This document shows, piece after piece, positions 4,552-61,258 of a stretch of DNA of 64,000 nt. Origin of the DNA: Rhodobacteraceae bacterium UBA2776 (GTDB lineage: Bacteria > Pseudomonadota > Alphaproteobacteria > Rhodobacterales > Rhodobacteraceae); NCBI GenBank assembly GCA_002352425.1, contig DEIK01000074.1, positions 7,346 to 71,345 of the forward strand. Reading direction: 5' to 3'. The notes below the pieces were generated by a model, which saw only the letters and a program-made list of their open reading frames with translations, ran no database searches and was not told where the DNA came from. The stretch's first letter is position 1; each line of letters begins with the position of its first letter. The position numbers and the translations under genes were made by a program.

Positions 4552-4564
4552 TATATATATATAT
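4552..4564. repeat. (TA)6T dinucleotide run within AT-rich element
   Basis: TATATATATATAT read directly. Confidence 0.9.
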
Positions 4565-4599
4565 TATTAGAAAGGGGGACCGAGATGTGAGGAAAACCC

Positions 4600-5061: not shown

Positions 5062-5066
5062 GAAAT

Positions 5067-5095
5067 CTTGACTCCTATAGCGTGCATCCCTATTT
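5067..5095 (+). promoter_or_regulatory. Sigma70-type promoter for rho
   Basis: CTTGAC-N17-CTATTT against the alphaproteobacterial RpoD consensus CTTGAC-N17-CTATAT. Confidence 0.65.
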
Positions 5096-5181
5096 AGCGC
5101 GTAATCCCGCCGTCCGGTGGGTGGTTTTTCACATTGTAAACTATGATAGTACACCCATTGGTGTGCCAAGGATCTGTATTC

Positions 5182-6468: not shown

Positions 6469-6501
6469 CTTATTGTTTAGTTACAATTGGTTAGATGAAA
6501 T

Positions 6502-7791
6502 ATGAGCACAATATTTGCCTTAGCGACGGCGCTTGGAAAATCAGGCGTGGCCGTCATTCGGTTGTCGGGGCCAATGGCCTTTTCGGCAGCCAAAAGGCTT
6601 GCTGGCACATTACCTAAGTATCGAGTTTCTGGCCTGCGCTCACTACATGATCTGGACGGTGTTTTGTTGGATCAAGCGTTGGTTTTGACGTTTGAACACG
6701 GGCACAGTTTTACCGGTGAAGACGTGGTCGAATTGCACCTGCACGGTGGTCCAGCGACGATTAAGGCTGTGCTGGAAACGCTTGGGAATATTGATGGTTT
6801 ACGGCTTGCTGAACCTGGCGAGTTTACGCGGCGCGCTCTTGAAAATGGATGTCTGGACTTGGCTCAGATTGAAGGGCTGAGTGACCTGCTCGAGTCCGAA
6901 ACAGAGGCTCAGCGCAAGCAGGCGTTACGGGTGTTTTCTGGTGCTTTGGGCGACAAGGCCGAGGCGTGGCGCAAAGATTTGATTCGTGCTGCTGCGCTTT
7001 TGGGGGCGACTATTGATTTTGTTGACGAAGACGTACCGGTTGATGTGACCCCCGAGGTGAACACATTGCTTGACGGGGTGATGTCTGCATTGGCGGTTGA
7101 GGCTGTTGGTGCTCGTATTTCGGAGCGCATCCGTGAAGGATTTGAGGTTGCTATTGTTGGCGCGCCCAACGTTGGCAAGTCGTCTCTGCTGAACCGGCTG
7201 GCAGGGCGGGATGCGGCGATCACGTCCGAGGTCGCTGGTACCACACGGGATGTCATAGAGGTGCGGATGGACCTGAACGGGTTGCCAGTGACTATTTTGG
7301 ACACCGCCGGCTTACGCGACACCGATGATATGGTTGAAGAGATTGGTATAGAACGGGCGATTTCACGGGCTAAACTCGCTGACTTGCGCGTCTTTCTTTA
7401 TGATCAAGAGCCGCTAGACCTTCCACTTGAGCCCGAGCAAAACGATATTGTTGTGCGCAGCAAGGCAGATATCTATGACGGGGATGCGTTTTCGGTGTCT
7501 GGTTTGACGGGTGTAGGCGTTGATTCTTTAACATCGCGGATATCCTCGGTGGTTGAAAACAAAGCACAGGGTGCTGGGGTTGCTATCCGCGAGCGTCACC
7601 GGTTGGCAATTTTAAGCGCTATAAGGGCTTTGGAAACCGCCAAAACTGAATTAGGGTACGGAATCGAACGCTCTGAGTTGGCGGCGGAGGAGCTGCATAC
7701 AGCCATCCGAGCCCTTGATAGTTTGGTCGGGCGTGTAGATGTAGAGCATATTCTGGATGAGATTTTCTCCAGCTTTTGTTTGGGAAAGTAA
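6502..7791 (+). CDS. mnmE: tRNA modification GTPase MnmE (TrmE)
   Basis: [36 protein letters not shown]-terminal FCLGK. Confidence 0.97.
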
Positions 7792-7795
7792 GGAT

Positions 7796-7811
7796 TGTTT
7801 CACGTGAAACA
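7796..7811. promoter_or_regulatory. parS centromere-like site 1
   Basis: Perfect palindrome TGTTTCACGTGAAACA. Confidence 0.93.
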
Positions 7812-9675
7812 TCAAAATTTTTTTGACGTTGTTGTTGTCGGCGGTGGTCATGCCGGCACTGAGGCTGCTCATGCTTCGGCCCGTATGGGCGCGAAAACGG
7901 CTTTGATCACCCTAACGAAATCCGGCATTGGTGTTATGTCCTGCAACCCAGCGATTGGCGGGTTGGGCAAAGGCCACCTTGTACGTGAAATTGACGCGTT
8001 GGATGGCGTTATGGGCCGCGTTGCTGATGTTGCAGGCATCCAGTTCCGATTGTTAAACCGTCGGAAAGGGCCTGCTGTGCAAGGACCACGCGCGCAGGCA
8101 GATCGAAAAATCTATCGCACGGCTATGCAAAATGAGATTTCCATTTGCGAAAATCTGACGGTGATTGAAGGAGAAGTCACTGACCTCATTATGAAAAATG
8201 ACGAGGTTTCTGGCGTTACGCTTGAAGATGGCACTGAAGTATTCTCGCCGTCGGTAGTGCTGACAACCGGCACGTTTTTGCGCGGCGTCATTCATATTGG
8301 TGATGTATCAAAGCCAGGTGGACGAATGGGCGACAAGCCTTCGGTCAAATTGGCCGAACGCCTGGATAGCTTTGATTTGGCGCTTAAACGCTTAAAAACG
8401 GGAACGCCGCCGCGATTAGACGGGCGCACGATCAATTGGGACATTCTTGAGTCCCAGCCCGGTGATGATGAACCGGTGATGTTTTCATTTCTGTCGAAAG
8501 CGCCAACAGCACGGCAGGTTTCTTGCGGAATCACCCACACGAACCAGGCCACACATGACATTATCCGCGAAAACCTAGAGCGTTCAGCGATGTATGGTGG
8601 CCATATTGATGGCGTTGGGCCGCGGTATTGCCCGTCGATCGAAGACAAAATCGTTCGTTTTGCTGATAAAGCTTCGCATCAGGTCTTTTTGGAGCCAGAA
8701 GGGTTGGATGATCATACGATTTACCCCAATGGCATTTCCACTTCGTTGCCAGAAGCTGTTCAGGTTGACTATGTGAACTCGATTGTCGGGCTTGAAAACG
8801 CGAAGATCCTGCAACCTGGTTATGCGATTGAGTATGATTACGTCGATCCGCGTGCTTTGACCGCGACGTTGGAGGTGAAAAACATTGCTGGATTGTTTCT
8901 TGCGGGGCAAATCAATGGAACAACTGGCTATGAAGAAGCCGCCGCCCAGGGGCTTGTGGCTGGTTTGAATGCCGCGCGCCGTGCCACCGATGGTGAGAAA
9001 ATCCAATTTAGCAGAGCGGAATCCTATATTGGTGTAATGATTGACGATCTTGTAACGCGCGGTGTGTCGGAACCATATCGCATGTTCACGTCTCGTGCCG
9101 AGTTCCGTCTGTCTTTGCGCGCGGACAATGCGGATCAACGGCTTACGGCAATTGGGGTTGCGGCGGGCTGTGTGAGCGAGAAAAGACAATTATCGTTTGA
9201 AAACAAAATGGAAGCTATGAGTGTAGCGCTGTCTGCTCTTCAAGGCACGACCCTCACACCAAAGGAAGTTTCCGCTCAAGGCATTAAGATAAACCAAGAC
9301 GGCAAGCGCCGGGATGGTTTTGATCTGTTGTCGTTTCAGGATGTCCATTTCAGTGATATCATCGCGATGCGACCAGAAATGGCCGATGTCGATCTTGAAA
9401 TTCAAAGGCAAATTGAGCGCGATGCGTTGTACGCCAACTATGTTCGCCGGCAACAAAGAGACGTTGAAGCGATGAAGCGGGATGAGTTGCAGAAGATACC
9501 TGAAGCATTTGATTACTCAGTGATCAGCGGGCTTTCGAATGAATTACGGTCGAAATTGCAAACTGTGCGGCCCATGACTCTGGGGCAGGCTGGGCGGATA
9601 GATGGTATGACACCTGCCGCGCTCACGCTGGTTTTGGCCAAGATTAGGCAGCATTCTAGAAAGAAACGTGCTTGA
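7804..9675 (+). CDS. mnmG: tRNA uridine-5-carboxymethylaminomethyl(34) synthesis enzyme MnmG (GidA)
   Basis: [40 protein letters not shown] motifs; GTG 7804 preferred over TTG 7795 because the AAGGA SD lies at 7790-7794. Confidence 0.97.
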
Positions 9676-42888: not shown

Positions 42889-42938
42889 TCTGATCTCCGT
42901 ATGGTCAATTTGGGCTCAGAAACTTGTATAGGTTATTT

Positions 42939-43931
42939 ATGGACAAGAACGCAGGGCAAAAGAGCGCATCCCAGCATCTATTTGCGCAAACCGCGCCGTT
43001 TAATACACGGATGTTGGATATGGGCGATGGCCACACGATCTATGTCGAGCAATGCGGTAACCCAGATGGGGTGCCGGTTGTGGTTTTGCATGGCGGACCG
43101 GGAGGTGGATGCAGCCCCGCGATGCGCCGCTTCTTTGACCCGACTGTTTATCGCATCATTTTGTTTGATCAACGCGGCTGCGGGCGGTCCAAGCCACATG
43201 CCAGTGTCGAGGCGAACACCACGTGGCATCTGGTGGCCGATATAGAGCGCATCCGGGCCGCACTCGACATTGACCGCTGGATTGTTTTTGGCGGCAGTTG
43301 GGGGGCGACACTGACGTTGATTTATGCTCTAACGCACCCCAATCACGTTGCGCATCTGGTTTTGCGCGGTGTGTTTTTGATGACGCAATCCGAGCTGGAT
43401 TGGTTCTATGGCGGCGGGGCTGGAAAGTTCTGGCCAGACCTTTGGGAAAATTTCGAAAACATGGTGCCGGTTGGTGAACGCGATGATTTGATCGCCGCCT
43501 ATCACAAGCGGTTGTTTTCCGGCGACCGTGATACCGAAGTGCGGTTTGCCCGCGCATGGTCGTCATGGGAAAATGCGCTGGCGTCGATTCATAGCAACGG
43601 CGCTGTAGGACAACCGCCCGCGGATTATGCATTGGCCTTTGCGCGACTTGAAAATCACTATTTTGCCAACGCCGGATTTTTGAAACACGACGATTGGATC
43701 ATAGAAAACCTGCCCAGCATTGCGCATATTCCTGCCAGCATTGTTCAAGGTCGATATGACATGATTTGTCCGCCGACCTCGGCGTGGCGGGTTGCCAAAG
43801 CGATGCCAAAGGCAAATTTGCAGATGGTGCAAATGTCTGGCCACGCCCTGTCAGAACCTGAAATTACAGCCGCTTTGGTGCAAATCATGAACAGATTGCG
43901 CCGCCAGGCCGACATTTTGGAGTGTCGTTGA
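42939..43931 (+). CDS. pip: Prolyl aminopeptidase
   Basis: LHGGPGGG, FDQRGCG, GGSWG, QGRYD, GH. Confidence 0.95.
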   Translation: MDKNAGQKSASQHLFAQTAPFNTRMLDMGDGHTIYVEQCGNPDGVPVVVLHGGPGGGCSPAMRRFFDPTVYRIILFDQRGCGRSKPHASVEANTTWHLVADIERIRAALDIDRWIVFGGSWGATLTLIYALTHPNHVAHLVLRGVFLMTQSELDWFYGGGAGKFWPDLWENFENMVPVGERDDLIAAYHKRLFSGDRDTEVRFARAWSSWENALASIHSNGAVGQPPADYALAFARLENHYFANAGFLKHDDWIIENLPSIAHIPASIVQGRYDMICPPTSAWRVAKAMPKANLQMVQMSGHALSEPEITAALVQIMNRLRRQADILECR

Positions 43932-44086: not shown

Positions 44087-45418
44087 ATGCGTATTGCGAT
44101 GATTGGCACAGGGTATGTCGGGCTTGTATCAGGTGTATGTTTTTCCGATTTCGGACATGATGTCATTTGTGTCGACAAAGACCCCGAAAAGATAGCGATG
44201 TTGGAGCGTGGCGAAGTTCCGATCTATGAGCCAGGCCTGGATGAGCTGATGGCCAAGAATGTCAAGAACGGCCGTCTTTCGTTTACGCAAGACCTAAAGA
44301 CAGCCGTTGCCGATGCCGATGCGGTTTTCATTGCTGTCGGTACGCCGACGCGTCGCGGGGATGGTCATGCCGACCTGACATTTGTTTACGCGGCCGCCGA
44401 AGAAATCGCCAATGCCATCACGGGTTACACCGTAGTTGTTACCAAATCGACCGTGCCGCTGGGTACCAATCGGCAGGTAAAACAGGTGATCCGCAAGGCC
44501 AATCCCAAGGCTGAATATGACGTTGCCTCCAACCCTGAATTCCTGCGCGAAGGGGCTGCGATTGATGATTTCATGCGGCCAGATCGTGTGGTTGTTGGCC
44601 TACAATCTGATCGTGCGCGTGATGTGATGGATGATATCTATCGGCCGCTTTCGCTCCGCGATTTTCCGGTGATCTATACGGATCTGGAATCCGCTGAAAT
44701 GATCAAATACGCTGCCAATGCATTTTTGGCGACAAAGATCACGTTCATTAACGAAATCGCGGGTCTGTGCGAGCGCACGGGTGCTGATGTGAAACAAGTG
44801 GCCAAGGGTATGGGCATGGATGGGCGCATAGGTGACAAATTCCTGCATGCCGGACCTGGCTACGGTGGATCATGCTTTCCCAAAGATACCAGCGCCTTGG
44901 CGCGGATGGGTCAGGAACATGCGGTTCCGATGCAAATCACTGAAACCGTGATCAAGGTCAACGACGAGATCAAGCGCCGGATGATCGATAAAGTCATGGA
45001 TTTGTGTGACGGCACAGTGAACGGCAAGGTTGTTGCCATTTTAGGTGTCACGTTTAAGCCCAATACCGATGATATGCGTGATGCGCCTGCTTTGACGATT
45101 GTGCCCGCACTTGTTGGTGGTGGTGCCAAGGTGCGCTTGGTTGATCCGCAGGGGCACCGCGAAGCTGAAGCGTTGCTGCCCGGCGTTCACTGGTTGGATG
45201 ACGCCTATAAGGCGGCGAATAATGCGGATGTGATTGTTTTGCTGACCGAGTGGAACGAATTCCGTGCGCTGGATCTGAAGCGTTTGGCCAAGAAAATGAC
45301 GGCACCACGGATGGCCGATCTTCGTAACATCTATAGCGCTAAAGATGCCAAAAGGGCCGGGTTCGAGGCTTATGTTTCGATCGGGCGCAAAGATATGTTC
45401 AATAATCCCGACGAATAG
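44087..45418 (+). CDS. ugd: UDP-glucose 6-dehydrogenase
   Basis: GTGYVG, AVGTP, KSTVP, NPEFLREG, GYGGSCFPKD; ATG 44087. Confidence 0.96.
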   Translation: MRIAMIGTGYVGLVSGVCFSDFGHDVICVDKDPEKIAMLERGEVPIYEPGLDELMAKNVKNGRLSFTQDLKTAVADADAVFIAVGTPTRRGDGHADLTFVYAAAEEIANAITGYTVVVTKSTVPLGTNRQVKQVIRKANPKAEYDVASNPEFLREGAAIDDFMRPDRVVVGLQSDRARDVMDDIYRPLSLRDFPVIYTDLESAEMIKYAANAFLATKITFINEIAGLCERTGADVKQVAKGMGMDGRIGDKFLHAGPGYGGSCFPKDTSALARMGQEHAVPMQITETVIKVNDEIKRRMIDKVMDLCDGTVNGKVVAILGVTFKPNTDDMRDAPALTIVPALVGGGAKVRLVDPQGHREAEALLPGVHWLDDAYKAANNADVIVLLTEWNEFRALDLKRLAKKMTAPRMADLRNIYSAKDAKRAGFEAYVSIGRKDMFNNPDE

Positions 45419-45433
45419 TCAAAAGGGCTGGTT

Positions 45434-46471
45434 TTGAAAACTCTTGCGATCACATCAATGCGTAACGAGGGCCCCCACTGTTTGGAGTGGATTGCCCATC
45501 ATTTGGCCGCGGGTGTTGACCACTTTTTAATCTACACGAATGATTGTGATGACGGCACTGATCTGATGCTTGATACATTAGAAAACGCTGGATTAGTGAC
45601 GCATATCCGGCAGGTTCCCAAAGGCAAACGCACGGTGCAATGGCAGGCGCTGAAACATGCCACGGATCATCCGTTGGTCGCACAGGCAGATTGGGTTTTG
45701 GTGACGGATTGTGATGAGTTTATCAACCTTCGCAGCCCTTATGGGACGCTGAAAGAAATGATCGAAGCCTTGCCTGACGAGGTGGATGCGATGGCGATGC
45801 CGTGGCGGTTGTTTGGCCATTCCGGCCAGATTGAAATGCGCGATGAGATGACGATTGAACGGTTTACCCGCGCAGCACCGATCGACATTCAACTGCCGCT
45901 GGCACATTTTTTTAAATCATTGTTTCGCCCCGCCGCGTTTCGTCAGTTTGGTGTGCATCGTCCAAAGCGCAAGCAGGACCGTTTGCCAAAATGGGTTGAC
46001 GGAGGTGGCAATGCATTGCCCGAGGGTTTTGCCAAACAGGACGGTCGCATCAACATGTTTGGCATCGAGGCCGGCACTGATTTGGTGCAGTTGAACCATT
46101 ATTCTCTACGCTCAGCGGAATCCTTTATGGTCAAACGGGCTCGTGGATTGCCCAATCATACGGAGCGCGAGATTGGTTTAGGCTATTGGGTCGAGCGTAA
46201 TTTCAACACGGTAGAGGACCCTAGCATTCAGCAAATGATGGGTGCGACAAAGGCCAAGTTGGATCAACTGAAGTTGATTAAAACAATCTCTAACCTGCAC
46301 AAAAACGCATGCCAGCGCCACAAAGACTGTTTTAACGAAATGATGACAAATCGCGCTGATATTCAATTGTTTTGGCACCTGACTTTAAGCGCCTCCAGTC
46401 AGCCACCCAGTGTAACTCTTGCGCGTACCCAGATTAACCGGATCATAAAGGCTGAAAACCAAGATGGCTAA
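45434..46471 (+). CDS. Glycosyltransferase, GT2-like (Glyco_tranf_2_4/GT92-type)
   Basis: MRNEG..LEW..HH, NDCDDGT, DCDEF (DxD), WRLFG, LNHY. Confidence 0.88.
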   Translation: MKTLAITSMRNEGPHCLEWIAHHLAAGVDHFLIYTNDCDDGTDLMLDTLENAGLVTHIRQVPKGKRTVQWQALKHATDHPLVAQADWVLVTDCDEFINLRSPYGTLKEMIEALPDEVDAMAMPWRLFGHSGQIEMRDEMTIERFTRAAPIDIQLPLAHFFKSLFRPAAFRQFGVHRPKRKQDRLPKWVDGGGNALPEGFAKQDGRINMFGIEAGTDLVQLNHYSLRSAESFMVKRARGLPNHTEREIGLGYWVERNFNTVEDPSIQQMMGATKAKLDQLKLIKTISNLHKNACQRHKDCFNEMMTNRADIQLFWHLTLSASSQPPSVTLARTQINRIIKAENQDG

Positions 46472-48734
46472 AGCCGCAAATAAGTCGAACTTCTTTTTGC
46501 AAACGACCCTGAATGTTCAGCAGGCGGGAGATGTGACTTTGCTTGATGCGATTTCGCATGCTGATGGCGATAATCGTAAAATGCAGTTGTTTTTTGCTGC
46601 GGGCACGCCGCCCGAGCAGTTTCGAGCGGGTAAAGGGCTGGAAATCATCGAAATGCGCAGCCTGGGCGAGGCGCCAATGCTGAATTGTATAGCCAAAGGT
46701 AAGTCTGGTCCTGTGTCGATTGATATTGGGAACCAGACCCTGAAAATTAAAGCCGAAGACCCTGAAACAGCCGTTTTCGCGGGTCTTAACGTGGGTTTTG
46801 CGATCCGCAACGGTGAATCGCTTGAAACCACGTTGGAATGGCTGAACTACCACGTCACGCATCATGGTATGAACGCTGCGCTTATTCTGGATCGGGCCAA
46901 ACCACAGGCCGATAAGGCCTACGCCAACCAGTTGAAAAACAAAGCCGCCAAGATCAAGGGACTGGAACGACTTGTACTGCTGAGAGCAAAAGTACCGCTT
47001 GGCAGAGCAGATTTGCCAGCGGAATCTCACCCTTTCAACGTGCCAGGTGCGCCGGGTAAGGATCGGATGGAAATTCCGAAAGGTGATGCGTGGAATTCGC
47101 CACTGGGTGAGTTGCAGATGTTTGAACTGCTGCGAGCGCGGTTTCTTGATCATGCCCGCGCTGTGATGAACATTGAGTTGTATGATCTGGTGGTGATTGG
47201 CAAAGGCAAAAATGTTTTTGACCGTGCGGTTGTGGCCAGCAATGGCTGTATTCAGATGGATGGCCATCAGATTTACCCGTGGCGCGTGCGCAATGGGGAT
47301 GAAGCCACATTTGGTGATCATATCTGCCGCCAGTTTGACGCCAAGGGTACGCGTAAACGGTGGTGTATTGCGCCTGCCACAGCCAAGGAAAATGTGGTTT
47401 GGCGTTTGATCCGTGTGGTTGGTGCGACCCCTGCACCGGAGGAGGCCGTGCCATATTTGCGTTGCATGGCTTTGCGTCATCCGACTGATACAGTGTCAAA
47501 AATTGTGCCTAAAACCAGCCTGATTGAAGATGAAAATCTGCTGGCCATGTCGCAGAATATTTTCAAACATAAACCGGTTCGCACACCTGAGGAAAATGCA
47601 GGGCTAAAGTGTCGTGATACCAACCGCACCGCCATCGTTACCACCATGAAAAACGAAGGGCCGTTTATCTTGGAATGGCTGGCGTACCACCGCGCCATCG
47701 GGGTTGATGATTTCTTGGTCTACACCAATGATTGCACGGATGGCACGGATACAATGCTGCAAATGTTGCAAGACAAAGGCATCGTCCAGCACCGTGAAAA
47801 TCCATTTAAAACCAGCGGCTTAAAGCCACAGCACGCAGCGCTTCAGGCGTCGGATGATGAGCCAATGATCCAGAATGCAGATTGGTTGATCTGTATGGAT
47901 GTCGATGAGTTTATAAACATCAAATGCGGCGCCGGGCGGCTTGATGATCTGTATGAGGCGATTGGCGACGCCAACATGATTTCGATCACTTGGCGGTTGT
48001 TTGGCAATAGTGATTTGCATGAATTCAAAGATGGCCTGATCATTGAGGATTATGATCTGTGCGCCCATGAATTGATCCGAAAACCACATCAAGCCTGGGG
48101 CTTTAAAACCCTGTTTCACAACATTGGTATTTTCAAAAAAATGGGGGTGCATCGCCCCAAGGGGTTAAAGCCGCAATTGTGGGAAGATATCAATTGGGTC
48201 AATGGATCAGGGGCGCAGATGCCCAGCGACATGTACCGTAACGGCTGGCGTTCCACGACCGAGACCTATGGTTATGATCTGGTGCAGTTGAACCATTATG
48301 CGGTGCGGTGCGCCGAGAGCTTTTTGGTCAAGCGGGATCGCGGGCGGGTTAACCACGTCGATCGGGACCAAGGCATGGCTTACTGGTTTCGGATGAACAA
48401 TAACGCGATGAAGGAGCATTCGATTCAGCGCATGGTGCCGGCCGTGCGTGCCGAGCTGGACGCGCTGATGGCTGACCCGGACATCGCCGCCGCACATGCG
48501 CATTCAGTTAAAATGCACAGCGAAAAAATTGTAGAGCTGAAGGCGGGTGAAAACTATGCCGCGTTCTATAAGGAATTGACCAGCCCGCGGTTAGAGGCCC
48601 TTTCGAAACTGCATGCGCATTTCGGGGCGAACGTGTTTCTGCTGGGACCAGAAGTTGTCCCTGACGAGGTTCTGGAGAAAGACCCCAATGAGGATTTCTT
48701 TTTCACTGTCGAAAAAGGCGAAACGACACATTAA
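46464..48734 (+). CDS. Large glycosyltransferase with C-terminal GT2-like domain and degenerate N-terminal GT-like domain
   Basis: C-half MKNEGPFILEW, DVDEF, GVHRPK, LNHY; N-half RNGESLETTLEWLNYH. Confidence 0.85.
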   Translation: MAKAANKSNFFLQTTLNVQQAGDVTLLDAISHADGDNRKMQLFFAAGTPPEQFRAGKGLEIIEMRSLGEAPMLNCIAKGKSGPVSIDIGNQTLKIKAEDPETAVFAGLNVGFAIRNGESLETTLEWLNYHVTHHGMNAALILDRAKPQADKAYANQLKNKAAKIKGLERLVLLRAKVPLGRADLPAESHPFNVPGAPGKDRMEIPKGDAWNSPLGELQMFELLRARFLDHARAVMNIELYDLVVIGKGKNVFDRAVVASNGCIQMDGHQIYPWRVRNGDEATFGDHICRQFDAKGTRKRWCIAPATAKENVVWRLIRVVGATPAPEEAVPYLRCMALRHPTDTVSKIVPKTSLIEDENLLAMSQNIFKHKPVRTPEENAGLKCRDTNRTAIVTTMKNEGPFILEWLAYHRAIGVDDFLVYTNDCTDGTDTMLQMLQDKGIVQHRENPFKTSGLKPQHAALQASDDEPMIQNADWLICMDVDEFINIKCGAGRLDDLYEAIGDANMISITWRLFGNSDLHEFKDGLIIEDYDLCAHELIRKPHQAWGFKTLFHNIGIFKKMGVHRPKGLKPQLWEDINWVNGSGAQMPSDMYRNGWRSTTETYGYDLVQLNHYAVRCAESFLVKRDRGRVNHVDRDQGMAYWFRMNNNAMKEHSIQRMVPAVRAELDALMADPDIAAAHAHSVKMHSEKIVELKAGENYAAFYKELTSPRLEALSKLHAHFGANVFLLGPEVVPDEVLEKDPNEDFFFTVEKGETTH

Positions 48735-48776
48735 CCACATGGCGGTAAAACAAAGCGGCTTATTGTTTCGGATTCG

Positions 48777-48805
48777 TTGACAAAGCGGGCTATTATCTAC
48801 ATATT
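48777..48805 (+). promoter_or_regulatory. Internal sigma70-type promoter of the glycan cluster
   Basis: TTGACA-N17-CATATT in the gap upstream of 48876. Confidence 0.5.
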
Positions 48806-48875
48806 TTAAGCGAAACAGGCACAATAAGCACTGCAAGTATAACAGGCCGAATGGCTGATAAAATTGAGGAATATC

Positions 48876-50420
48876 ATGGTACTCCCGACAATCGGAACAC
48901 TTTGGATTGGTCCTGAACTGAGCTGGCTGGAACAGCTGTGTTTGCAATCGTTTTTGGACCACGGGCACGAGGTGGTTTTATACACCTATGGCCAAGTTAA
49001 AGGTGTGCCAAAAGGCGTGAAGATCGCAGACGCAGATGATGTGTTGCCCAGCAAGAGCATCATCCGCCATGCGCGCACAGGTAGCCCTGCTTATCATGCC
49101 GATGTGTTTCGCCTGCATATGTTGAAACAGACGGACTATATATGGGCCGATACTGATGCGTTTTGCTGTCAGCCTTGGGACATTAAAAAGGGCAAGCATT
49201 TTCACGGATGGATTTCCGATAAGAAACCACAGGTGAACAACGGTGTTTTGCGTCTGCCAAAGTCTAGCAAAACGCTGGCGGCGATGATCAAATTCACCAG
49301 TGATGAATATCCGGTTCCGCCGTGGCTGTCCAAGAAGGACAAGGATGAGCTGCAGGCCTTGAAAGACAAGGGCGAGGGCATGCATGTGTCCTTGATGCCG
49401 TGGGGCGTTTGGGGGCCGGATGCGTTGACTTGGTTCCTGAATGACACGGGTGAAATCAAGTATACTCAAGACAAGCATGTGATCTATCCCGTGCCGTTTT
49501 CCATCGCAGGCGTCACCCTTAATCCCAATCGGCGTGACAAGGCCCGTGGGATGATTAAGGATGACACGCTTTCAATCCATTTCTGGGGGCGTCGTTTTAG
49601 AAACATTGCCGCCAAATATGGCGGTGTGCCGCCAAAAGGCAGCTATGTTGCCGAGCTGTGTAAACGTCACAAGATTAACCCCAGGAAAACAGCCCATATG
49701 ATGCAAAAGAAAAATATCGTAGCGCCGATCCAAGATGTGGATTTTTCCATGTTCGATGATGCTGATGTGGCTAACCTCATTTTGCAACGCTCCGAAGTGG
49801 GTGAGGTTGGGCAGGAAATCCGCGATTGGCTGGATGGCAACGACGCACCTTTGCAAAAATACGCTAAGGATAATCGCGATGCAATTTTGAACGAGGCCCT
49901 CGAAGTGGCGCGGCGGGAATGCGAGTTTTTTGTCGAAGCTACGGATGACCCAAAGCCAAAGAAAATTGCAGATATTGGATGTGGGTATGCTTTTGCCGAT
50001 CTGTTTTTGTACAACCGTTACAAATCCAATATTACCTTGATCGACATTGAGGAAAGCAAAGACCGCCATTTTGGCTTTGCAGAATCTGGTTCGGGCTATG
50101 CGAGTCTGGATAAGGCGCAGAAGTTTTTGACCAAAAATGGTGTGCCTAAGCAAAAGATCACGCTGATCAATCCGAATAAGAAAAAGGTTTCCAAGATCGG
50201 CGATTTTGATCTGGCGATTAGTCTGGCCTCTTGTGGGTTTCACTATCCGGTTTCCACCTATGATGGGTTTTTCAGCAGTCAGATAAACGACGGCGGTGCC
50301 GTGGTTTTGGATATCCGCAAAGGTTCGGGTGGGATTGGGGAAATGAAGTCATTTGGCACTGTTGATGTGCTGGCAAAGCACCCGAAATATTCAACGGTTT
50401 TGGCCCGCGCAGATGGTTGA
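48876..50420 (+). CDS. Fusion of DXD-motif glycosyltransferase (GT32-like) and class I SAM methyltransferase
   Basis: LWIG..LS.LEQLCLQSF, ADVFR, WADTD (49149-49157); IADIGCG (49971-49985), IDIE, FDLAIS. Confidence 0.8.
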   Translation: MVLPTIGTLWIGPELSWLEQLCLQSFLDHGHEVVLYTYGQVKGVPKGVKIADADDVLPSKSIIRHARTGSPAYHADVFRLHMLKQTDYIWADTDAFCCQPWDIKKGKHFHGWISDKKPQVNNGVLRLPKSSKTLAAMIKFTSDEYPVPPWLSKKDKDELQALKDKGEGMHVSLMPWGVWGPDALTWFLNDTGEIKYTQDKHVIYPVPFSIAGVTLNPNRRDKARGMIKDDTLSIHFWGRRFRNIAAKYGGVPPKGSYVAELCKRHKINPRKTAHMMQKKNIVAPIQDVDFSMFDDADVANLILQRSEVGEVGQEIRDWLDGNDAPLQKYAKDNRDAILNEALEVARRECEFFVEATDDPKPKKIADIGCGYAFADLFLYNRYKSNITLIDIEESKDRHFGFAESGSGYASLDKAQKFLTKNGVPKQKITLINPNKKKVSKIGDFDLAISLASCGFHYPVSTYDGFFSSQINDGGAVVLDIRKGSGGIGEMKSFGTVDVLAKHPKYSTVLARADG

Positions 50421-51774
50421 GACAAAGACGATTCTTCAGGCGCTTGATCTGGATGAGGTGGGGCGGATCGCTGATATCAATGGCGGCACACCTGATCTGG
50501 CGATTGCGCTACACAACCGATTTGGCAGCAAAATCGACGTGATCTGTTTGGACAGCGAAGGCGGGTATATTGAGCCGGATAAAGATATCCGTAAATATAC
50601 CAAAAAGCTGCAAAAAGCCGGTGTTGAAAAATCAGCTATTCGGTTTGTGACAAAGCAAAGGATGCTCAAATCCTATGACGTGGTCACCACGGTTGGAAAT
50701 TTCGGGTCGCGCTACAAGATCAAGCATATCAAACGTCTGTTTGATAAGGCACTGCACCCGTTATCACGGGTGGTAATTGATATCAAAAAGGGCAGTGGTA
50801 GCTATCCGTTTTTGAACGACTACGGCGGATGCAATACCCTATCAGCGCCAACGCGAGACAGCACAGGTATGGTGGTGATGTCGGTTGAACCCGTGTCCGA
50901 ACCGGCGGGCGAATGGTCTGCGATTGCCAAAAAACTGGCAGGCAAAAAGGGCTTTTTCACTGATTGTGGCGAGCATTCCTTTCTTTACATCCCGCGTGGC
51001 GACACATTGGTTGTGACCTTTGACAACCTTGATATAGCCATGACCAAACGTGATGATCGGCGTCCTTGGGGCTTTGCGTTTATTGAGTCTGAAAACTGGT
51101 CCATGCTGGGCGTTATGGCCAACGGCTGGACATGGTTTCGCGATGGGGCTGTGACGGATGAATTTAATCGTCTACGCGACAGTGGTTTCTTTGATCAATT
51201 CAAGCGCGTGGTGTTTTACGGGGCCTCGATGGGTGGGTACGGCGCTGCGGCTTATTCAGCGGCGGCCAAGGGATCAACTGTATTTGTGATCAGCCCACAA
51301 TCGACGTTGGATAAGGAAATCGTTCCGTGGGAAATGCGCTATAAAAAGGTCTGGGGCCGCGATTTTTCCGGCGAATATGGCGATGCTTCTATCAGCAGTC
51401 AATCGGCTGCCGACGTGCATTTGATGTATGACCCTTATGTTGCGCCCGATACGGGTCATGCCAAACGGTTCACGGGTGAAAATGTTACGCATTGGCGCTG
51501 TCCGTTGCTTGGCCACCGGCTAGGGTCATCCTTGCAGCAAATGGGAATTTTGCAGGAAATCGCGCGCAAATCCATTTTGGGCGAGTTAGACCAGCTGACG
51601 TTTTACAAATTGCTGCGCAAGCGCCACGAATTTCCGCGCTATCAGCGTGAACTGGCCAATCTGGCACTGGATCGAGGCCGCCCTGAATTGGCGCGCCGCG
51701 TTTGTCGCTTTGTATTGGCGCAGCGCAAAGACCGGTTTTTCCAAAAAATGCTGGCCCGTATCGCCAATGATTAG
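50413..51774 (+). CDS. Fusion of degenerate methyltransferase-like domain and alpha/beta hydrolase
   Basis: N-domain aligns by eye with the upstream MTase domain (IADINGG, VVIDIKKGSG); C-domain LVVTFDN and GASMGG nucleophile elbow (51220-51234). Confidence 0.75.
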   Translation: MVETKTILQALDLDEVGRIADINGGTPDLAIALHNRFGSKIDVICLDSEGGYIEPDKDIRKYTKKLQKAGVEKSAIRFVTKQRMLKSYDVVTTVGNFGSRYKIKHIKRLFDKALHPLSRVVIDIKKGSGSYPFLNDYGGCNTLSAPTRDSTGMVVMSVEPVSEPAGEWSAIAKKLAGKKGFFTDCGEHSFLYIPRGDTLVVTFDNLDIAMTKRDDRRPWGFAFIESENWSMLGVMANGWTWFRDGAVTDEFNRLRDSGFFDQFKRVVFYGASMGGYGAAAYSAAAKGSTVFVISPQSTLDKEIVPWEMRYKKVWGRDFSGEYGDASISSQSAADVHLMYDPYVAPDTGHAKRFTGENVTHWRCPLLGHRLGSSLQQMGILQEIARKSILGELDQLTFYKLLRKRHEFPRYQRELANLALDRGRPELARRVCRFVLAQRKDRFFQKMLARIAND

Positions 51775-51849
51775 CATCTGACTTGAGGCGACTTTGTTAA
51801 TCATGATAGGTTATGGACAATAAAGTAACGGATCGAGTAGCGGGATAAT

Positions 51850-52737
51850 ATGCGCACAGATATCAACATCGTTTATCATTTGGGTGCGCCCCACACAGAC
51901 AATGATCAAATTACATGGTCTTTGCGCAAAGACGCGGATTTGCTGGCCGAAAAAGGCGTTATGATGCGCCGCCCTGGGGAATATCGGCAAGTTCTAAAAG
52001 AAATGATCCTTGAATTGAAGGGAGAGGACCCGTCGGTCGTAGATCAGGAGAATCTGCTTTCCGCTATCATCAAAAACCAGCAGGTTGATCGTTTGATTAT
52101 GTCTGATCCCCGGTTTTTGGGAGTGCCTGCGTGGATGCTGTATGGCGGTTCGCTTTATCAAAATGCGGCGAAAAATACGGGGCGCATTCGGGATTTGTTT
52201 CCAGACAACCCCTGCGAGTTTCACCTTGGTATTTCGTGTCCTGCCACCTTTCTTCCAGCGGTTTTTAAGGCTCAAACCGACAAGACCTATGAGCAGTTTA
52301 TTGATGGTTGCGATTTGGCGACCCTTCGGTGGTCCAATGTCATTCGCGAAATCCAAGAGGAAAACCCAGATTGCCCGCTGAATGTGTGGTGCAACGAAGA
52401 TACGCCGATCATTTGGCCGACAATCCTGCGTGAGATCGCGGGACTAGATCCGCAAACACGTCTGGCTGGCGAGTTGGATGTCATTCAGCAAATCATGTCC
52501 GAGGATGGTGTTGCGCTATTGGTCAAATATCTGGACGAGCGGCCCAACCTGACCGAAATTCAACGCCGCCGTGTGCGGGGTATTTTCCTTGAGAAATTCT
52601 TTTTGGATGAGGCAGTTGAAGAAGAAATCGATCTGCCCGGATGGGCGGATGAAACCGTAGATGCGTTAACAGAAATCTACGAAGACGACATTGAACGGAT
52701 CGAGAGCTTGCCGGGTGTAAACTTTATCACGCCCTAA
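51850..52737 (+). CDS. Conserved hypothetical protein, sulfotransferase-like fold suspected
   Basis: IVYHLGAPHT resembles the xHxGxxKT PAPS-binding loop; acidic C-terminus. Confidence 0.6.
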   Translation: MRTDINIVYHLGAPHTDNDQITWSLRKDADLLAEKGVMMRRPGEYRQVLKEMILELKGEDPSVVDQENLLSAIIKNQQVDRLIMSDPRFLGVPAWMLYGGSLYQNAAKNTGRIRDLFPDNPCEFHLGISCPATFLPAVFKAQTDKTYEQFIDGCDLATLRWSNVIREIQEENPDCPLNVWCNEDTPIIWPTILREIAGLDPQTRLAGELDVIQQIMSEDGVALLVKYLDERPNLTEIQRRRVRGIFLEKFFLDEAVEEEIDLPGWADETVDALTEIYEDDIERIESLPGVNFITP

Positions 52738-52778
52738 TCATCACACAGCAGTAAAACTCAATCACAAGGCTTTCAAAC

Positions 52779-53795
52779 ATGCGCACCGCACTCGTTACCG
52801 GATCAGCTGGATTCATCGGATATTTCACCTGTAAACGCTTGCTGGAGGCTGGGTTTCGGGTGATTGGCGTCGATGCGATGACAGATTACTACGATGTGTC
52901 GCTGAAAGAGCGTCGCCATGCGATGTTGTTGCAAGGCCCGAATTTCTCGGCGATCAATGCGCGGATCGAAGAACCCGACATGCTGAAAAACCTGCTGCGC
53001 GATGAGCAGATTGACGTGGTGGTTCACCTCGCAGCGCAAGCTGGCGTGCGCTATTCGATTGAAGATCCGAAGTCCTATGTACAGGCCAATTTGCTGGGTG
53101 CGTATGAGTTGCTTGAGGCGGTGCGCGCCCATAAGCCGGGCCATGTTTTAATGGCATCCACATCATCGGTTTATGGGGCCAACACGCAAATGCCTTATAA
53201 AGAGACCGATAAGGTCGACACTCAAATGTCGTTCTATGCTGCCACCAAAAAAGCGAACGAGGCGATGGCGCATTCCTACGCGCATCTTTACGACATCCCG
53301 ACCACGATGTTCCGGTTTTTCACGGTTTATGGTCCTTGGGGCCGCCCTGATATGGCGCCGATCCGGTTCGCCAAGGCGATTTATGCGGATGAACCTATCG
53401 ATATTTATAACCACGGCAAAATGAAGCGTGATTTTACCTATGTCGAGGATTTGGTCGAGGGTATTTTGCGTCTGATTGATGCGGTGCCAGTGCGGCCTGC
53501 GTCTGAGGACGACATCGAGGAAGGCGACAGCCTGAGTGCGGTTGCACCGTTTCGGCAGGTGAATATCGGCAATGCCGAACCTGTTCCGTTGATGGAGTTC
53601 ATTGCGGCGATGGAATCCGCCATCGGGGTTGAGGCGAAAAAGAACTATATGGATATTCAACCAGGTGATGTGCCGGCCACATGGGCGGACACAGCATTGT
53701 TGAAGCGCTTGACGGGGTATGCCCCTTCGACCAGCGTTCAAACAGGGGCGGCCAAGTTTGTAGAATGGTACAAAGAGCATTATAATCAAGGGTGA
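52779..53795 (+). CDS. UDP-glucuronate 4-epimerase (NAD-dependent SDR)
   Basis: TGSAGFIG, HLAAQAGVRYS, ASTSSVYG, YAATKK, RFFTVYGPWGRPDMA. Confidence 0.88.
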   Translation: MRTALVTGSAGFIGYFTCKRLLEAGFRVIGVDAMTDYYDVSLKERRHAMLLQGPNFSAINARIEEPDMLKNLLRDEQIDVVVHLAAQAGVRYSIEDPKSYVQANLLGAYELLEAVRAHKPGHVLMASTSSVYGANTQMPYKETDKVDTQMSFYAATKKANEAMAHSYAHLYDIPTTMFRFFTVYGPWGRPDMAPIRFAKAIYADEPIDIYNHGKMKRDFTYVEDLVEGILRLIDAVPVRPASEDDIEEGDSLSAVAPFRQVNIGNAEPVPLMEFIAAMESAIGVEAKKNYMDIQPGDVPATWADTALLKRLTGYAPSTSVQTGAAKFVEWYKEHYNQG

Positions 53796-53889: not shown

Positions 53890-53913
53890 AACGGGCCGCG
53901 CGCCCGTTTTTTT
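53890..53913 (+). terminator. Intrinsic terminator/attenuator in rimP leader
   Basis: AACGGGC-CGCGC-GCCCGTT followed by a T-run, between the promoter and rimP ATG. Confidence 0.7.
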
Positions 53914-53975
53914 GTGCTTTGAGAAAAGTTAAAAATGCCGGTTTCAAATGCTGCACAAGCTTAAGAAAAGAACAT

Positions 53976-59359: not shown

Positions 59360-59387
59360 GGGGGGTGCTGCGGCGCCCCCCTTTTTT
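59360..59387 (+). terminator. Intrinsic terminator after infB
   Basis: GGGGGGTGC-TGCG-GCGCCCCCC followed by TTTTTT. Confidence 0.88.
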
Positions 59388-60339
59388 ATTTCAGAGAGTT
59401 CAGCGTACGCTCCAGCCCGTCATGTAACGTGTAGGGCGCCTTGAACCCGTCCAATTCATGCTTGGCGGTGGCAAAGCTGGTGGAGGAGGTGAATTTTTGC
59501 ACCCGAATCCTGCTGATCGGCAACTTCTTTCCCGTCAGTTTGGTCACCACATCCGCAGTCCAACCCAATGCCAGTCCTAGCCATTTTGGCAAACGTAGCC
59601 CAACACCATTTTTCCCCAGCATGTTTTTGCGCACATCAGCGACCAGTGTGTTCATGTCATAATCAGGCGTGTCGACGTAGTTGAAAACGCCATAAGTGGT
59701 TTTGGTGGTCACACAGGTTAGTAAAAACGCGGCAATATTTTGCACGTAGGCCATGGATTTTTGATTGTTTCCATCGCCAACCATTAGGAAACGTCCGGAA
59801 GTGATTTGCTTGATCAGGTTATAGACGTTGCCGCGATTGCCTTCTCCAAACACCACGGTCGGGCGCACAACCAGCAGCGCCCGTTCCTCGGGATTTTCAC
59901 CGCGCCACTGTTCAAGTTGCTCTTCGGCCTGATATTTGGATTTCCCATAGGCGTTGAATGGATTGATCGCGCCGGTTTCGCCCGTTCCATTTTTGGCGAA
60001 GCCATAGACCGCCACCGAGCTGGCGAAAATGATCTTTTGGATCCCTTTATCGGCGCAAACTTCGGTCAAGGTTTTTGTACCAAATACGTTGGTCTGAAAA
60101 TATTCATTCGGATCGGAAACATCGTCGGTATGCACGGCGGCCAAGTTGACAACAACCTGTCCTGTGATGGTGCCCTGCAGGCTGTTTTTGTCGCGAATGT
60201 CGCCAATTTTGGTCTTGTCGGGAAACAGCGGGCTTGGGACTAAATCAATGATTTCAAATGGCATCTGGCGGTCGGCCAATATTTGACAAAGGACTGTTCC
60301 GATGAAGCCAGAACCACCTATGATTGTAATTTTATTCAT
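59386..60339 (-). CDS. NAD-dependent epimerase, Gnu-like (GlcNAc-PP-undecaprenol 4-epimerase family)
   Basis: GGSGFIG, AAVHTDDVS, SSVAVYG, PFNAYGKSK, RPTVVFGEGNRGNVYNL, KSMAYV closely resemble E. coli O157 Gnu as recalled. Confidence 0.8.
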   Translation of the reverse strand: MNKITIIGGSGFIGTVLCQILADRQMPFEIIDLVPSPLFPDKTKIGDIRDKNSLQGTITGQVVVNLAAVHTDDVSDPNEYFQTNVFGTKTLTEVCADKGIQKIIFASSVAVYGFAKNGTGETGAINPFNAYGKSKYQAEEQLEQWRGENPEERALLVVRPTVVFGEGNRGNVYNLIKQITSGRFLMVGDGNNQKSMAYVQNIAAFLLTCVTTKTTYGVFNYVDTPDYDMNTLVADVRKNMLGKNGVGLRLPKWLGLALGWTADVVTKLTGKKLPISRIRVQKFTSSTSFATAKHELDGFKAPYTLHDGLERTLNSLK

Positions 60340-60604
60340 ATTGCCTCGACTCTGAACCGCTATTTTCTACGAAAAAGGCCCGCGTTAGGGCATACGGCTT
60401 TTGGGCCTGTTTTGATTTTGTCATTCAGGGACTGGAATTGAAAGGGGTGTTCTGAGATGTAGAGGGCCGTAAATTCGGTTTGCACACGCAGAAAACCGCC
60501 GACCTCGATCGGTATCCCCATTTACTATTTTCCCTTTTTCAGGCATAAGTGGCGTTGCACACTGTATTTTTTGCCTGACGTGTGCATTCAACCTGGGGGC
60601 TGAA

Positions 60605-61258
60605 TTGACAGTATATGTATCCGATAGACAGATTGCAAAAGCGAGCAAAGTTGCTACTGCGATTGGTGGATCGCCCTTGTTTTGGGCCTCAAAGCGTTGT
60701 TTTGATATTGTAACGAGTCTGCTTTTGCTGCCCCTTTTGGCCCTGTTTGCTATTATCCTCCTAGTTGTGAATCCTTTTGCGAATCGTGGGCCGCTGTTTT
60801 TCGTCCAAATCCGTATGGGGCGGGATTGTCGTGCTTTCAAAGCCTATAAATTCCGTACAATGCATGGGGAAAAGATGGTTCGTAGAGGGCCAAATGACCC
60901 GATTGAGAGCTGTGGGATCACAAATTTTGGTAAATTCTTACGCAAAACCCGCATTGATGAACTGCCGCAAATTCTGAATGTTTTACAGGGAAAAATGAGC
61001 TTGATCGGGCCGCGTCCGGATTTCTTTACCCATGCTCGTGCATTTGTGCGCGCCATTCCGGAATACCGCGACCGTCATCGCATTCGCCCTGGTATTTCCG
61101 GTCTTGCACAGGTCGAGTTGGGCTATGCGGAAGGGTTCGCTGAAACCCGCACGAAGGCCCAGGCAGATCTATACTATATCAAAAACGCTGGCTTCCTTTT
61201 GGAGCTGCGTTTGATCGGCAAAACCATCACCACAATCCTGACCAAAGCCGGCGTTTAA
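60605..61258 (+). CDS. Sugar transferase (small monotopic phosphoglycosyl transferase, Bac_transf)
   Basis: KRCFDI, YKFRTM, LRKTRIDELPQ, MSLIGPRP, RPGISGLAQV; TTG start uncertain. Confidence 0.9.
   Translation: MTVYVSDRQIAKASKVATAIGGSPLFWASKRCFDIVTSLLLLPLLALFAIILLVVNPFANRGPLFFVQIRMGRDCRAFKAYKFRTMHGEKMVRRGPNDPIESCGITNFGKFLRKTRIDELPQILNVLQGKMSLIGPRPDFFTHARAFVRAIPEYRDRHRIRPGISGLAQVELGYAEGFAETRTKAQADLYYIKNAGFLLELRLIGKTITTILTKAGV

Follow-up and report, generated by a model that had tools for sequence, protein, structure and literature searches.

An uncharacterised, modular glycan locus between pip and rimP in Rhodobacteraceae bacterium UBA2776

What is made by a group of genes that encodes sugar-activating enzymes, glycosyltransferases and decorating enzymes, and neither a polymerase nor an exporter? 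This question is raised by an island of seven genes in a 64,000-nucleotide stretch of Rhodobacteraceae bacterium UBA2776 (assembly GCA_002352425.1, contig DEIK01000074.1, positions 7,346 to 71,345), the whole of which is referred to below as the window. Seven co-oriented open reading frames (ORFs) on the + strand, here named ugd, gtA, gtB, gtM, mtH, stl and uge, occupy positions 44087-53795 of the window and are bounded by pip and rimP. A sequence-only reading had described them as a cytoplasmic line building a uronic-acid-containing, O-methylated and possibly acylated or sulfated glycan on an acceptor made elsewhere, and had considered them a candidate for an undescribed system. We found that the island, judged by its predicted domains, is one gene-content variant of modular families that are spread over Rhodobacteraceae chromosomes and plasmids. 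Its product is tentatively placed in an acidic capsule. Roseobacters are dominant marine surface colonisers and algal partners, and their surface polysaccharides govern attachment, susceptibility to phages and grazers, and carbon export. To our knowledge, almost none of the genes for Rhodobacteraceae surface polysaccharides have been assigned.

Domain identities and predicted chemistry of the seven proteins

The first and last genes encode the nucleotide-sugar enzymes. Ugd matched all three UDPG_MGDP_dh Pfam domains (PF03721, PF00984 and PF03720, with E-values of 2e-68, 1e-38 and 5e-34, respectively) and scored 457 bits against TIGR03026 (cut-off 190), its Rossmann domain beginning at residue 30 of the ORF, that is, at nucleotide 44087. 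It fell below the own cut-offs of the equivalog models TuaD and AglM, and scored 58 bits against TviB (NF011729, cut-off 592); its subfamily was left open. Uge is an extended short-chain dehydrogenase/reductase (SDR) with the motifs GSAGFIG and YAATK (PF01370, 6.5e-53). Its matches in PDB, namely 5u4q (3e-113), the 6zl6/6zla series (8e-46), which we take to be the B. cereus UDP-glucuronate 4-epimerase, and MoeE5 (6e-31), all outranked GalE-type entries, and its scores against GalE (TIGR01179; 134 bits, cut-off 262) and TviC (NF011728; 97 bits, cut-off 760) were below the cut-offs of these models. Membership in the two families was confirmed, which identified Ugd as a predicted UDP-glucose 6-dehydrogenase and Uge as a UDP-glucuronate 4-epimerase by predicted substrate. 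The chemistry of both families is established, and the domain matches support the claim that the two enzymes would together supply UDP-glucuronate (UDP-GlcA) and UDP-galacturonate (UDP-GalA).

The next two genes contain glycosyltransferase (GT) domains. gtA matched PF13704 with 72.6 bits (cut-off 27.5) and PF01697 with 45.5 bits (cut-off 23), and its DXD motif is D-C-D within VTDCDEF; the TTG start of this gene is backed by an N-terminus that is conserved among homologues. The C-terminal half of gtB matched the same families with 76.2 and 36.5 bits (at residues 396-513), and its DXD motif is D-V-D within CMDVDEF. These two regions are paralogues (40% identical, hhalign E-value 4e-83), and profile scores and motifs together gave solid grounds for predicting that both are GT92-like domains of the GT-A type with intact DXD. 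The labels given earlier to ugd, to the single GT gene and to the epimerase gene were thus retained. Searches with the gtA sequence and profile against PDB sequences gave nothing, and no characterised counterpart was found in the literature on bacterial GT92 enzymes.

The description of gtB as a double GT stood for its C-terminal half and is unproven for the N-terminal half, which showed no significant profile similarity to GT-A enzymes and had no match in Pfam or PDB, whether the family was searched as a profile or through its single members. One-to-one hhalign comparisons with GT92-like profiles gave E-values of 0.007 over 58 columns and 0.04 over 35 columns; the alignment was confined to the motif LEWLxYH and the following beta-strand, where the nucleotide repeat D7 is also located, and the position equivalent to DXD is N-I-[ED]. 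Mean column identity of this half was 58%, with many invariant polar residues and the motifs APGKDRM, FGDHIC, RWCxAP, ALRHP and VPKTSL. Because such conservation argues for a working domain, the label "degenerate" is unproven, and we class the N-terminal half by its sequence as an orphan conserved domain.

gtM was read earlier as a GT-methyltransferase fusion, and this assignment is plausible on account of consistent motifs, the profile statistics being weak. In its N-terminal domain, W94, D96, D98, D80, F82 and R83, located in the motifs ADVFR and WADTD, were invariant across 14 homologues. These homologues matched PF04488 (Gly_transf_sug, 8e-4), PF04572 (Gb3_synth, 1e-5) and PF05704 (Caps_synth, 0.06) weakly, and the protein of the window itself matched no GT32-type Pfam model at E<=10. 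The domain profile also aligned weakly to the DXD region of the Legionella glucosyltransferase SetA (E-value 0.011). A helical linker leads to the C-terminal domain, whose motif I (DIGCGYA) and acidic IDIEE were kept in all homologues that bear a methyltransferase. This domain matched Methyltransf_25/23 weakly (E-values of 0.15-0.23 with the window protein, and of 2e-4 to 4e-4 with the best of its relatives), and as a profile it found HEN1-type 2'-O-methyltransferases in PDB, also weakly (0.026). It is 89, 83 and 75% identical to the corresponding domains of the genomes G012, G002 and G001, respectively. Overall, gtM plausibly combines a GT32-like GT-A domain with a class I S-adenosylmethionine (SAM)-dependent methyltransferase. 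The latter is probably active.

mtH contains two domains as well. Its N-terminal domain is 25.6% identical to the methyltransferase domain of gtM over 160 amino acids (aa; E-value 5e-7). Its motif I has the form ADI[N/G]G[G/Q/S]A, and some members carry F or A instead of G. The acidic residue that closes beta-2 is not conserved (13 of 23 homologues). In the C-terminal domain, S272 (in a GASMGG elbow), D340 and H368 were invariant in the 23 homologues, and a helical tail follows. Sequence searches against PDB gave no match. The AlphaFold2 (AF2) model (pLDDT 86), in which the N-terminal domain matches class I methyltransferases, had 410 matches in PDB at E<=1e-3; the top 50 listed were mostly alpha/beta hydrolases, together with class I methyltransferases on the N-terminal domain. 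The best Foldseek match was CsaC (6yuo; E-value 2e-6, target TM-score 0.55, ~13% identity), which acts in the cytoplasm as O-acetyltransferase for the serogroup A capsule of meningococci, a capsule exported by an ABC transporter; next came feruloyl and hormone-sensitive lipase (HSL)-type esterases, the streptococcal glycosylation-associated complex Gap123 (6oyc_B) and Ag85C. The model and the fold search confirmed the earlier prediction that mtH fuses a degenerate methyltransferase fold with an alpha/beta hydrolase of the Ser-Asp-His type. They also support a predicted acyl-transfer or esterase-type function for the latter, which is CsaC-like by fold similarity alone, and with it the suggestion that the glycan could be acylated. 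The dead methyltransferase fold is probably a docking or substrate-binding module beside its active paralogue.

The remaining protein, stl, had been called sulfotransferase-like, from which sulfation of the product was considered. It matched no Pfam, NCBIfam or PDB profile. Its AF2 model (pLDDT 90.7) was most similar in Foldseek to the tyrosylprotein sulfotransferases TPST1/2 (E-value 1e-5, TM-score 0.38-0.47), and then to GPN/SRP GTPases. At the position of the 5'-phosphosulfate loop, the motif P-K/R-S/T-G-T-T for binding of 3'-phosphoadenosine 5'-phosphosulfate (PAPS) is absent; the N-terminal loop is HLGAPHTDND, and across the family the consensus [YF]HxGxHxTDxD contains two acidic residues and lacks K/R-S-G. 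We therefore rejected the assignment of stl as a PAPS-dependent sulfotransferase, since the likeness is one of fold only. The genome can make PAPS (an adenosine 5'-phosphosulfate kinase domain is present), and the stl profile showed no similarity to the NKWYS/Sulfotransfer_2 protein encoded elsewhere in this genome.

The layout of the island agrees with the earlier description of seven co-oriented genes between pip and rimP, both flanks having been identified (Table 1). On the side opposite to pip, the island is followed by rimP, nusA, ylxR and infB. Most junctions are short or overlapping (ugd/gtA 15 nucleotides (nt), gtA/gtB -8 nt, gtM/mtH -8 nt, mtH/stl 75 nt and stl/uge 41 nt), the sole exception being the gap of ~140 nt between gtB and gtM. 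This gap contains the top match (10/12) of 13 sigma-70-like consensus matches in the region, and a hairpin with a 7-pair stem (5 GC pairs) followed by TTTTTTTGTG is located 3' of uge; since the number of consensus matches was no higher than in shuffled sequence, both the promoter-like and the terminator-like site are given as a suggestion only. All seven genes were kept free of stop codons across many genomes and are therefore real genes. Nucleotide identity along the island is even (74-92%), and its GC content (0.508) is very close to the 0.519 of the window, giving no compositional sign of recent transfer. Neither flanking direct repeats nor tRNA-type integration scars were found around the island, and the repeats inside it reflect the gtA/gtB paralogy only. 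An antisense ORF of 345 aa (46443-47480, - strand) opposite the gtA/gtB junction was treated as a chance open frame.

Table 1. Positions of the genes, domains and sites of the island and of two nearby genes, in window coordinates.
Feature	Position	Strand	Assignment
ugd	44087..45418	+	Predicted UDP-glucose 6-dehydrogenase, 443 aa from ATG 44087; ORF open from 44000
gtA	45434..46471	+	Predicted GT92-like GT-A glycosyltransferase, 345 aa, TTG start
gtB	46464-48734	+	756 aa, two halves
gtB, N-terminal half	46464..47618	+	Orphan conserved domain (by sequence), ~385 aa
gtB, C-terminal half	47619..48734	+	Predicted GT92-like GT-A domain
promoter-like site	48777..48805	+	TTGACA-17-CATATT in the gtB-gtM gap (suggestion)
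gtM	48876-50420	+	514 aa, two domains
gtM, N-terminal domain	48876..49730	+	Plausible GT32-like domain
gtM, C-terminal domain	49920..50420	+	Plausible methyltransferase domain
mtH	50413-51774	+	453 aa, two domains
mtH, N-terminal domain	50413..50900	+	Methyltransferase fold (model)
mtH, C-terminal domain	50901..51774	+	Predicted alpha/beta hydrolase
stl	51850..52737	+	Orphan P-loop-like protein with sulfotransferase-like fold, 295 aa
uge	52779..53795	+	Predicted UDP-glucuronate 4-epimerase, 338 aa
terminator-like hairpin and T-run	53890..53917	+	3' of uge, before rimP ATG 53976 (suggestion)
pip	42924-43931		Prolyl aminopeptidase; TIGR01249 397 bits (cut-off 260)
Bac_transf gene	60605-61258		Phosphoglycosyl transferase, 217 aa

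Variation of the island and distribution of its parts

The adjacency of pip and rimP in relatives had been proposed as a check. We found that the neighbourhood mt0-pip|rimP-nusA is ancestral in Rhodobacteraceae and that the size of the gap differs by genus, the junction being empty or filled with other cargo outside the genus of the island. The gap is 0.7-1 kb in four genera (represented by one genome each, G047, G023, G129 and G109), 2-3 kb in two (G163 and G064), and ~6 kb in two others (G066 and G084), where it contains a peptide ABC importer. This importer, located at 1536-8064 of locus L105 (G066) and 1635-7511 of L113 (G084), consists of a binding protein, two permeases and a fused ATPase. 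Because such cargo is found in other genera, the pip-rimP junction can be considered a general insertion hotspot.

The names of its matches put the genome in or beside Marinosulfonomonas/Profundibacter, within the Rhodobacteraceae/Paracoccaceae. Within the genus, all genomes with a readable neighbourhood have a glycan island beside pip, and also beside rimP where the contig reaches it. Its gene content takes at least four forms. All seven genes are present in our genome, G012, G001 and G002. In G009, G011 and G013, the GT32-like domain is fused straight to the pseudo-methyltransferase-hydrolase, without the active methyltransferase, and a deleted remnant of this form is found in G007. A third form (G008 and G005) is composed of ugd-gtA-gtB, a third GT92-like gene, a different GT32-only gene and stl, and lacks both mtH and uge. 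The smallest form, (ugd)-gtA-stl only, is found in G004 and G010. The remnant (locus L096, G007:C13, 9151-9891) comprises ~740 bp of GT32 and mtH fragments between gtB and stl, with uge kept, and represents what a deletion has left of the module in one species. All eight loci of the genus with the gtM-type GT32/mtH module, intact or as a remnant, contain uge, which is missing from the four without this module; these counts were drawn from related genomes and are a lead rather than a statistic. Because uge covaries with GT32/mtH, we assigned UDP-GalA to this module, and the gtM-type transferase is its likeliest user.

Outside the genus, the same families occur in other combinations. A gtB-gtM-mtH-stl cassette without ugd and uge is present in Leisingera, Planktotalea and Roseobacter sp. 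EG26, where it adjoins recombinase genes (Leisingera) or chemoreceptor/metG genes and is accompanied by extra methyltransferases. A related set of two GT92-like genes, a GT32-like gene and unknowns was found on Sulfitobacter, Cognatishimia and Oceaniglobus chromosomes and on a Phaeobacter plasmid, and in Oceaniglobus and Phaeobacter it also includes an mtHc-like gene and an FkbM methyltransferase. In Sulfitobacter (L101, 2480-11017), a GT32-like gene, a GT92 fusion (584 aa) and two unknowns (481 and 269 aa) form an operon ending in a 766-aa protein with Sulfatase/Phosphodiest and HemolysinCabind domains, with a divergent gtA-like gene and katG adjacent; katG is also a neighbour of the module on the Phaeobacter plasmid. 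Pairs of stl and gtA alone were seen in other genera (L012 and L015). The domains are fused in several ways, including GT32-methyltransferase, pseudo-methyltransferase-hydrolase and GT32-pseudo-methyltransferase-hydrolase (~735-760 aa). Besides, a GT92-hydrolase fusion is located next to rfbABCD (the rhamnose operon) on a Loktanella plasmid, together with an ABC-2 permease, YjbF/H, a sugar dehydrogenase, further GTs and a calcium-binding protein, and a hydrolase-sulfotransferase fusion lies beside type I secretion system (T1SS) genes on a Paracoccus plasmid. These fusions point to a functional coupling of the families. A fixed site with varying content, recombinase neighbours and plasmid copies are hallmarks of surface-antigen loci, which suggests that the island belongs among them.

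Single relatives of island genes were also found elsewhere in the genome of UBA2776. Between rpoC and the rpsL-rpsG-fusA operon (contig C41, 3387-4388; neighbours recognised from N-terminal sequences) there is a single GT92-like gene that shares 27% identity with gtA. The hydrolase domain of mtH has a paralogue (35% identical) that stands alone beside pyrC, pyrE and dnaB (C50, 9363-10328). The same pyrC/pyrE/dnaB neighbourhood in Oceaniglobus contains an mtHc-like gene, an FkbM methyltransferase, a GT32-like gene, two GT92-like genes and unknowns, and the lone gene of UBA2776 may be left over from a cluster of this type or act together with one. A lone stl paralogue (41% identical; C26, 6408-7319) is divergent from a gene for a 561-aa BPD_transp_1 permease, an arrangement that recurs in Aliiroseovarius.

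Relatives of stl were widespread: ~1,770 representative clusters were found at E<=1e-3, and the best 150 listed are all ~290 aa in length and share the same loop. They occurred in 119 of 150 Rhodobacteraceae genera sampled (~80%), mostly as a lone paralogue among housekeeping genes, and the stl2 type occurred in none of 16 genomes outside this family. A GT92-like gene was adjacent in 16 of 19 stl-centred loci whose stl is >=48% identical to that of the window, compared with 7 of 61 other stl loci. One possible, rather doubtful explanation of this pairing is that stl and its GT92-like partner carry out an undescribed, Rhodobacteraceae-specific glycan-modification chemistry, in which stl would be a new kind of transferase with a non-PAPS donor and the pip-rimP island a specialised version, made of paralogues, of a pathway shared by the whole family. 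With equal reserve, such a pathway might be built from three or four families that have neither a Pfam model nor a studied member.

Thus, the view of the island as an undescribed system held insofar as the locus is uncharacterised, but it is not a one-off, being part of a modular family set across Rhodobacteraceae. This recurrent, shuffled tool-kit of soluble enzymes (GT92-like, GT32-like, methyltransferase, CsaC-like and an orphan P-loop protein) may be a major uncharacterised share of the roseobacter glycan repertoire. It offers testable assignments, namely a UDP-GalA-using GT32-like transferase, a methyltransferase/pseudo-methyltransferase pair, and a protein with a "sulfotransferase" fold that would be either a scaffold or an enzyme independent of PAPS. 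Homologous cassettes in the cultivable Leisingera, Phaeobacter and Sulfitobacter make these assignments practical to test.

Acceptor and export route

Where would a glycan made by these proteins be assembled, and how would it leave the cell? None of the seven proteins has a hydrophobic 19-mer window suggestive of a transmembrane (TM) helix or a signal peptide, and no Pfam match to an exporter, polymerase or priming transferase was found inside 44087-53795; both results agree with the cytoplasmic line proposed in the sequence-only reading. ABC-transporter-dependent assembly needs no Wzx/Wzy, its group 2 form needs no undecaprenyl-phosphate primer, and seven soluble proteins fit this type of assembly. 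A Wzy_C/WaaL domain was not detected in the genome, which is 99% complete, and the control search found this domain in 9 of 14 reference genomes.

The genome contains a complete KpsM/T/E/D/C/S set: kpsS, a Poly_export lipoprotein gene and kpsC are located on contig C25 (34915-39433), and kpsM, kpsE and kpsT, with a single GT2 gene, on C100 (10974-14728), while a second kpsT-kpsE pair is found on C42 and a second Poly_export gene on C126 (at 103 kb). The KpsE-like proteins scored 227 bits, below the equivalog cut-off of 437. None of the kps loci on C25, C100 and C42 has a sizeable biosynthetic region of its own. The kpsS-X-kpsC unit was present in 29 of 30 family genomes sampled, whether or not they have the island; it is therefore a family trait, and polymer-specific genes must lie elsewhere. 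Thus, the acceptor made elsewhere that had been postulated has a concrete candidate in this Kps-type set scattered over three contigs, to which the island would be linked in function. The region around kpsM/kpsE/kpsT (C100, 10974-23980) also encodes the 248-aa NKWYS/Sulfotransfer_2 protein, a 1173-aa protein with 31 repeats-in-toxin (RTX) repeats, and at least two smaller RTX paralogues.

The reading that we tentatively prefer, while giving it somewhat less than an even chance, is that the island is a variable, "region-2-like" locus for an ABC-exported (Kps-type) acidic capsule, set apart from the export genes. In its favour are that all parts are soluble, that WaaL/Wzy was not detected, that the Kps machinery is an orphan and that mtH resembles CsaC. 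Like the serotype-specific region 2 of a group 2 locus, the island encodes cytoplasmic enzymes without TM segments. Under this proposal, Ugd would oxidise UDP-glucose to UDP-GlcA, part of which Uge would epimerise to UDP-GalA. gtA, the C-terminal half of gtB and the GT32-like domain of gtM would then extend an acidic glycan at the cytoplasmic face of the membrane, the GT32-fused SAM methyltransferase would methylate this glycan, and the CsaC-like domain of mtH would O-acylate or de-esterify the product. stl, paired with a GT92-like enzyme, might contribute a further modification or serve as a scaffold, which would not be canonical PAPS sulfation. Finally, the chain, either growing or finished, would be passed to the unlinked Kps-type (group-2-like) machinery.

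Several observations weigh against a Kps-exported capsule. The kps genes are on C25, C100 and C42 and not near the island, so that the position expected of a region 2 is not observed, and among ~30 homologous loci, read with flanks of 10 kb, none adjoins kps genes. The near-universal occurrence of kpsC/kpsS makes their co-occurrence with the island non-discriminating. The fold-search scores of CsaC are barely ahead of those of ordinary esterases. A PglC-sized Bac_transf priming transferase is located 6.8 kb downstream of the island, and the minimal variants (gtA and stl, with or without ugd) look too small for a whole repeat unit, suggesting decoration of an existing acceptor rather than polymerisation. 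Moreover, we know of no activity, product or phenotype for the bacterial GT92-like, GT32-like, mtH or stl homologues. The missing kps linkage in the genomes examined and the two- and three-gene minimal variants keep the rival explanations open. One apparent exception, a KpsE homologue 8 kb from the island in L016, was judged coincidental, as an ABC importer, MscS and PGM intervene.

The minimal variants and the lone stl and gtA pairs have the size of decoration modules, and they are the main argument for an alternative that we nevertheless consider unlikely, namely that the island decorates a non-capsular envelope glycoconjugate with a few uronic acids and methyl or acyl groups. The acceptor could be the lipopolysaccharide (LPS) core or lipid A, a short, Bac_transf-primed undecaprenyl-linked oligosaccharide, or a periplasmic or other glycan. 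In Klebsiella and rhizobia, GalA from Uge-type epimerases goes into the LPS core, and a potential priming enzyme is close at hand, since the Bac_transf gene and an SDR epimerase gene (- strand) are inserted just past infB, between infB and argJ (59386-61258). However, this pair was found only here and in the closest relative G012, whereas argJ directly follows infB in the island carriers G001, G007 and G013; the island is therefore not dependent on the pair in cis. The failure to detect WaaL/Wzy_C also argues against such an acceptor, and simple decoration of a core would need fewer components than the three to four GT domains and the two decorating enzymes of the island.

A product that is never exported is less probable still. 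Mycobacterial clusters for methylglucose and methylmannose polysaccharides (MMP) consist of GTs, methyltransferases and a hydrolase without an exporter, a set that is mirrored by the island, and an intracellular methylated or acylated oligo- or polysaccharide of this kind, or a glycosylated small molecule or lipid, would be in keeping with seven soluble proteins and with ~30 loci across genera in which no exporter is linked to the module. But content that varies between species at a fixed site, and plasmid copies, typify surface structures, as do uronic acids, and enzymes of the MMP and methylglucose lipopolysaccharide (MGLP) pathways were not among the top 50 fold matches listed for mtH. Glycosylation of a protein in the cytoplasm before its secretion, such as an RTX-type T1SS substrate or an adhesin, is the least probable of all, for the RTX, calcium-binding and T1SS genes near related modules (Sulfitobacter operon, Paracoccus and Loktanella plasmids) and near kpsMET here, and the weak alignment of gtM to the protein-glucosylating effector SetA, are countered by the lack of any RTX or T1SS gene in or beside the island, by rhizobia, where T1SS-secreted calcium-binding glycanases and lectins that act on polysaccharide often flank exopolysaccharide (EPS) genes and would account for such proximity, and by methylation and acylation enzymes and a uronic-acid supply that suit a polysaccharide better.

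Comparison with known systems

In agreement with the sequence-only reading, no characterised pathway matching the island was found in PDB, Pfam, NCBIfam names or the literature. Similarly, the literature on Rhodobacteraceae kps genes, uronic or sulfated capsules and roseophage receptors contained no characterised counterpart that we could find. The GT92-like proteins, the mtH-type hydrolase, stl and the gtB N-terminal domain belong to families without a characterised bacterial member, and stl and the pairing with a pseudo-methyltransferase are the most unusual parts of the island. Its general logic has parallels in several systems.

One parallel is plant pectin machinery, which has GT92 beta-1,4-galactan synthases (GALS), UDP-GlcA 4-epimerases (GAE) and methyl and acetyl decoration; these are Golgi membrane enzymes, and the analogy is one of parts alone, with no evidence of common pathway descent. 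WbdD of the ABC-dependent E. coli O8/O9a O-antigens likewise couples a SAM methyltransferase to a cytoplasmic glycan-building pathway that is separated from its exporter. In contrast to WbdD, the methyltransferase of the island has no kinase domain and is fused to a GT32-like domain, no WaaL was detected, and methylation could be terminal or in-chain. The Vi antigen locus follows a similar logic, in that a dehydrogenase (TviB) and a 4-epimerase (TviC) make an activated sugar of the galacturonic type, which a soluble GT (TviE) polymerises and an O-acetyltransferase (TviD) decorates, ahead of export by the Vex ABC transporter. However, the predicted substrates of the island are UDP-glucose and UDP-GlcA rather than UDP-GlcNAc, its GT families are different, and it has no vex genes.

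Within the same family, roseobacter attachment requires plasmid-borne polysaccharide genes and a KpsMT-type ABC exporter (PMC5030684). These RepA-I "biofilm plasmids" (Michael et al. 2016, PMC5030684) resemble the island in their cytoplasmic GTs and variable accessory sets. They carry a rhamnose operon together with the exporter, whereas the island is chromosomal, is predicted to use uronic acids and has no exporter nearby, and the families of the island are not described in that paper.

A further parallel is csaA-D of meningococcal serogroup A (group 2 region 2/A), which also consists of nucleotide-sugar enzymes, soluble transferases and a Ser-Asp-His O-acyl enzyme. Neither locus has Wzx/Wzy, and the csa product is exported by separate Kps/Ctr genes, as we propose here. 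The differences are that the island is not flanked by export regions, which are on other contigs; that it has GT92- and GT32-like transferases where csa has a hexose-phosphate polymerase; and that it adds a methyltransferase, a pseudo-methyltransferase and stl, its identity to CsaC being only ~13%. The island is a genuine uncharacterised glycan locus that resembles group-2 region 2 and the biofilm-plasmid sets in its logic.

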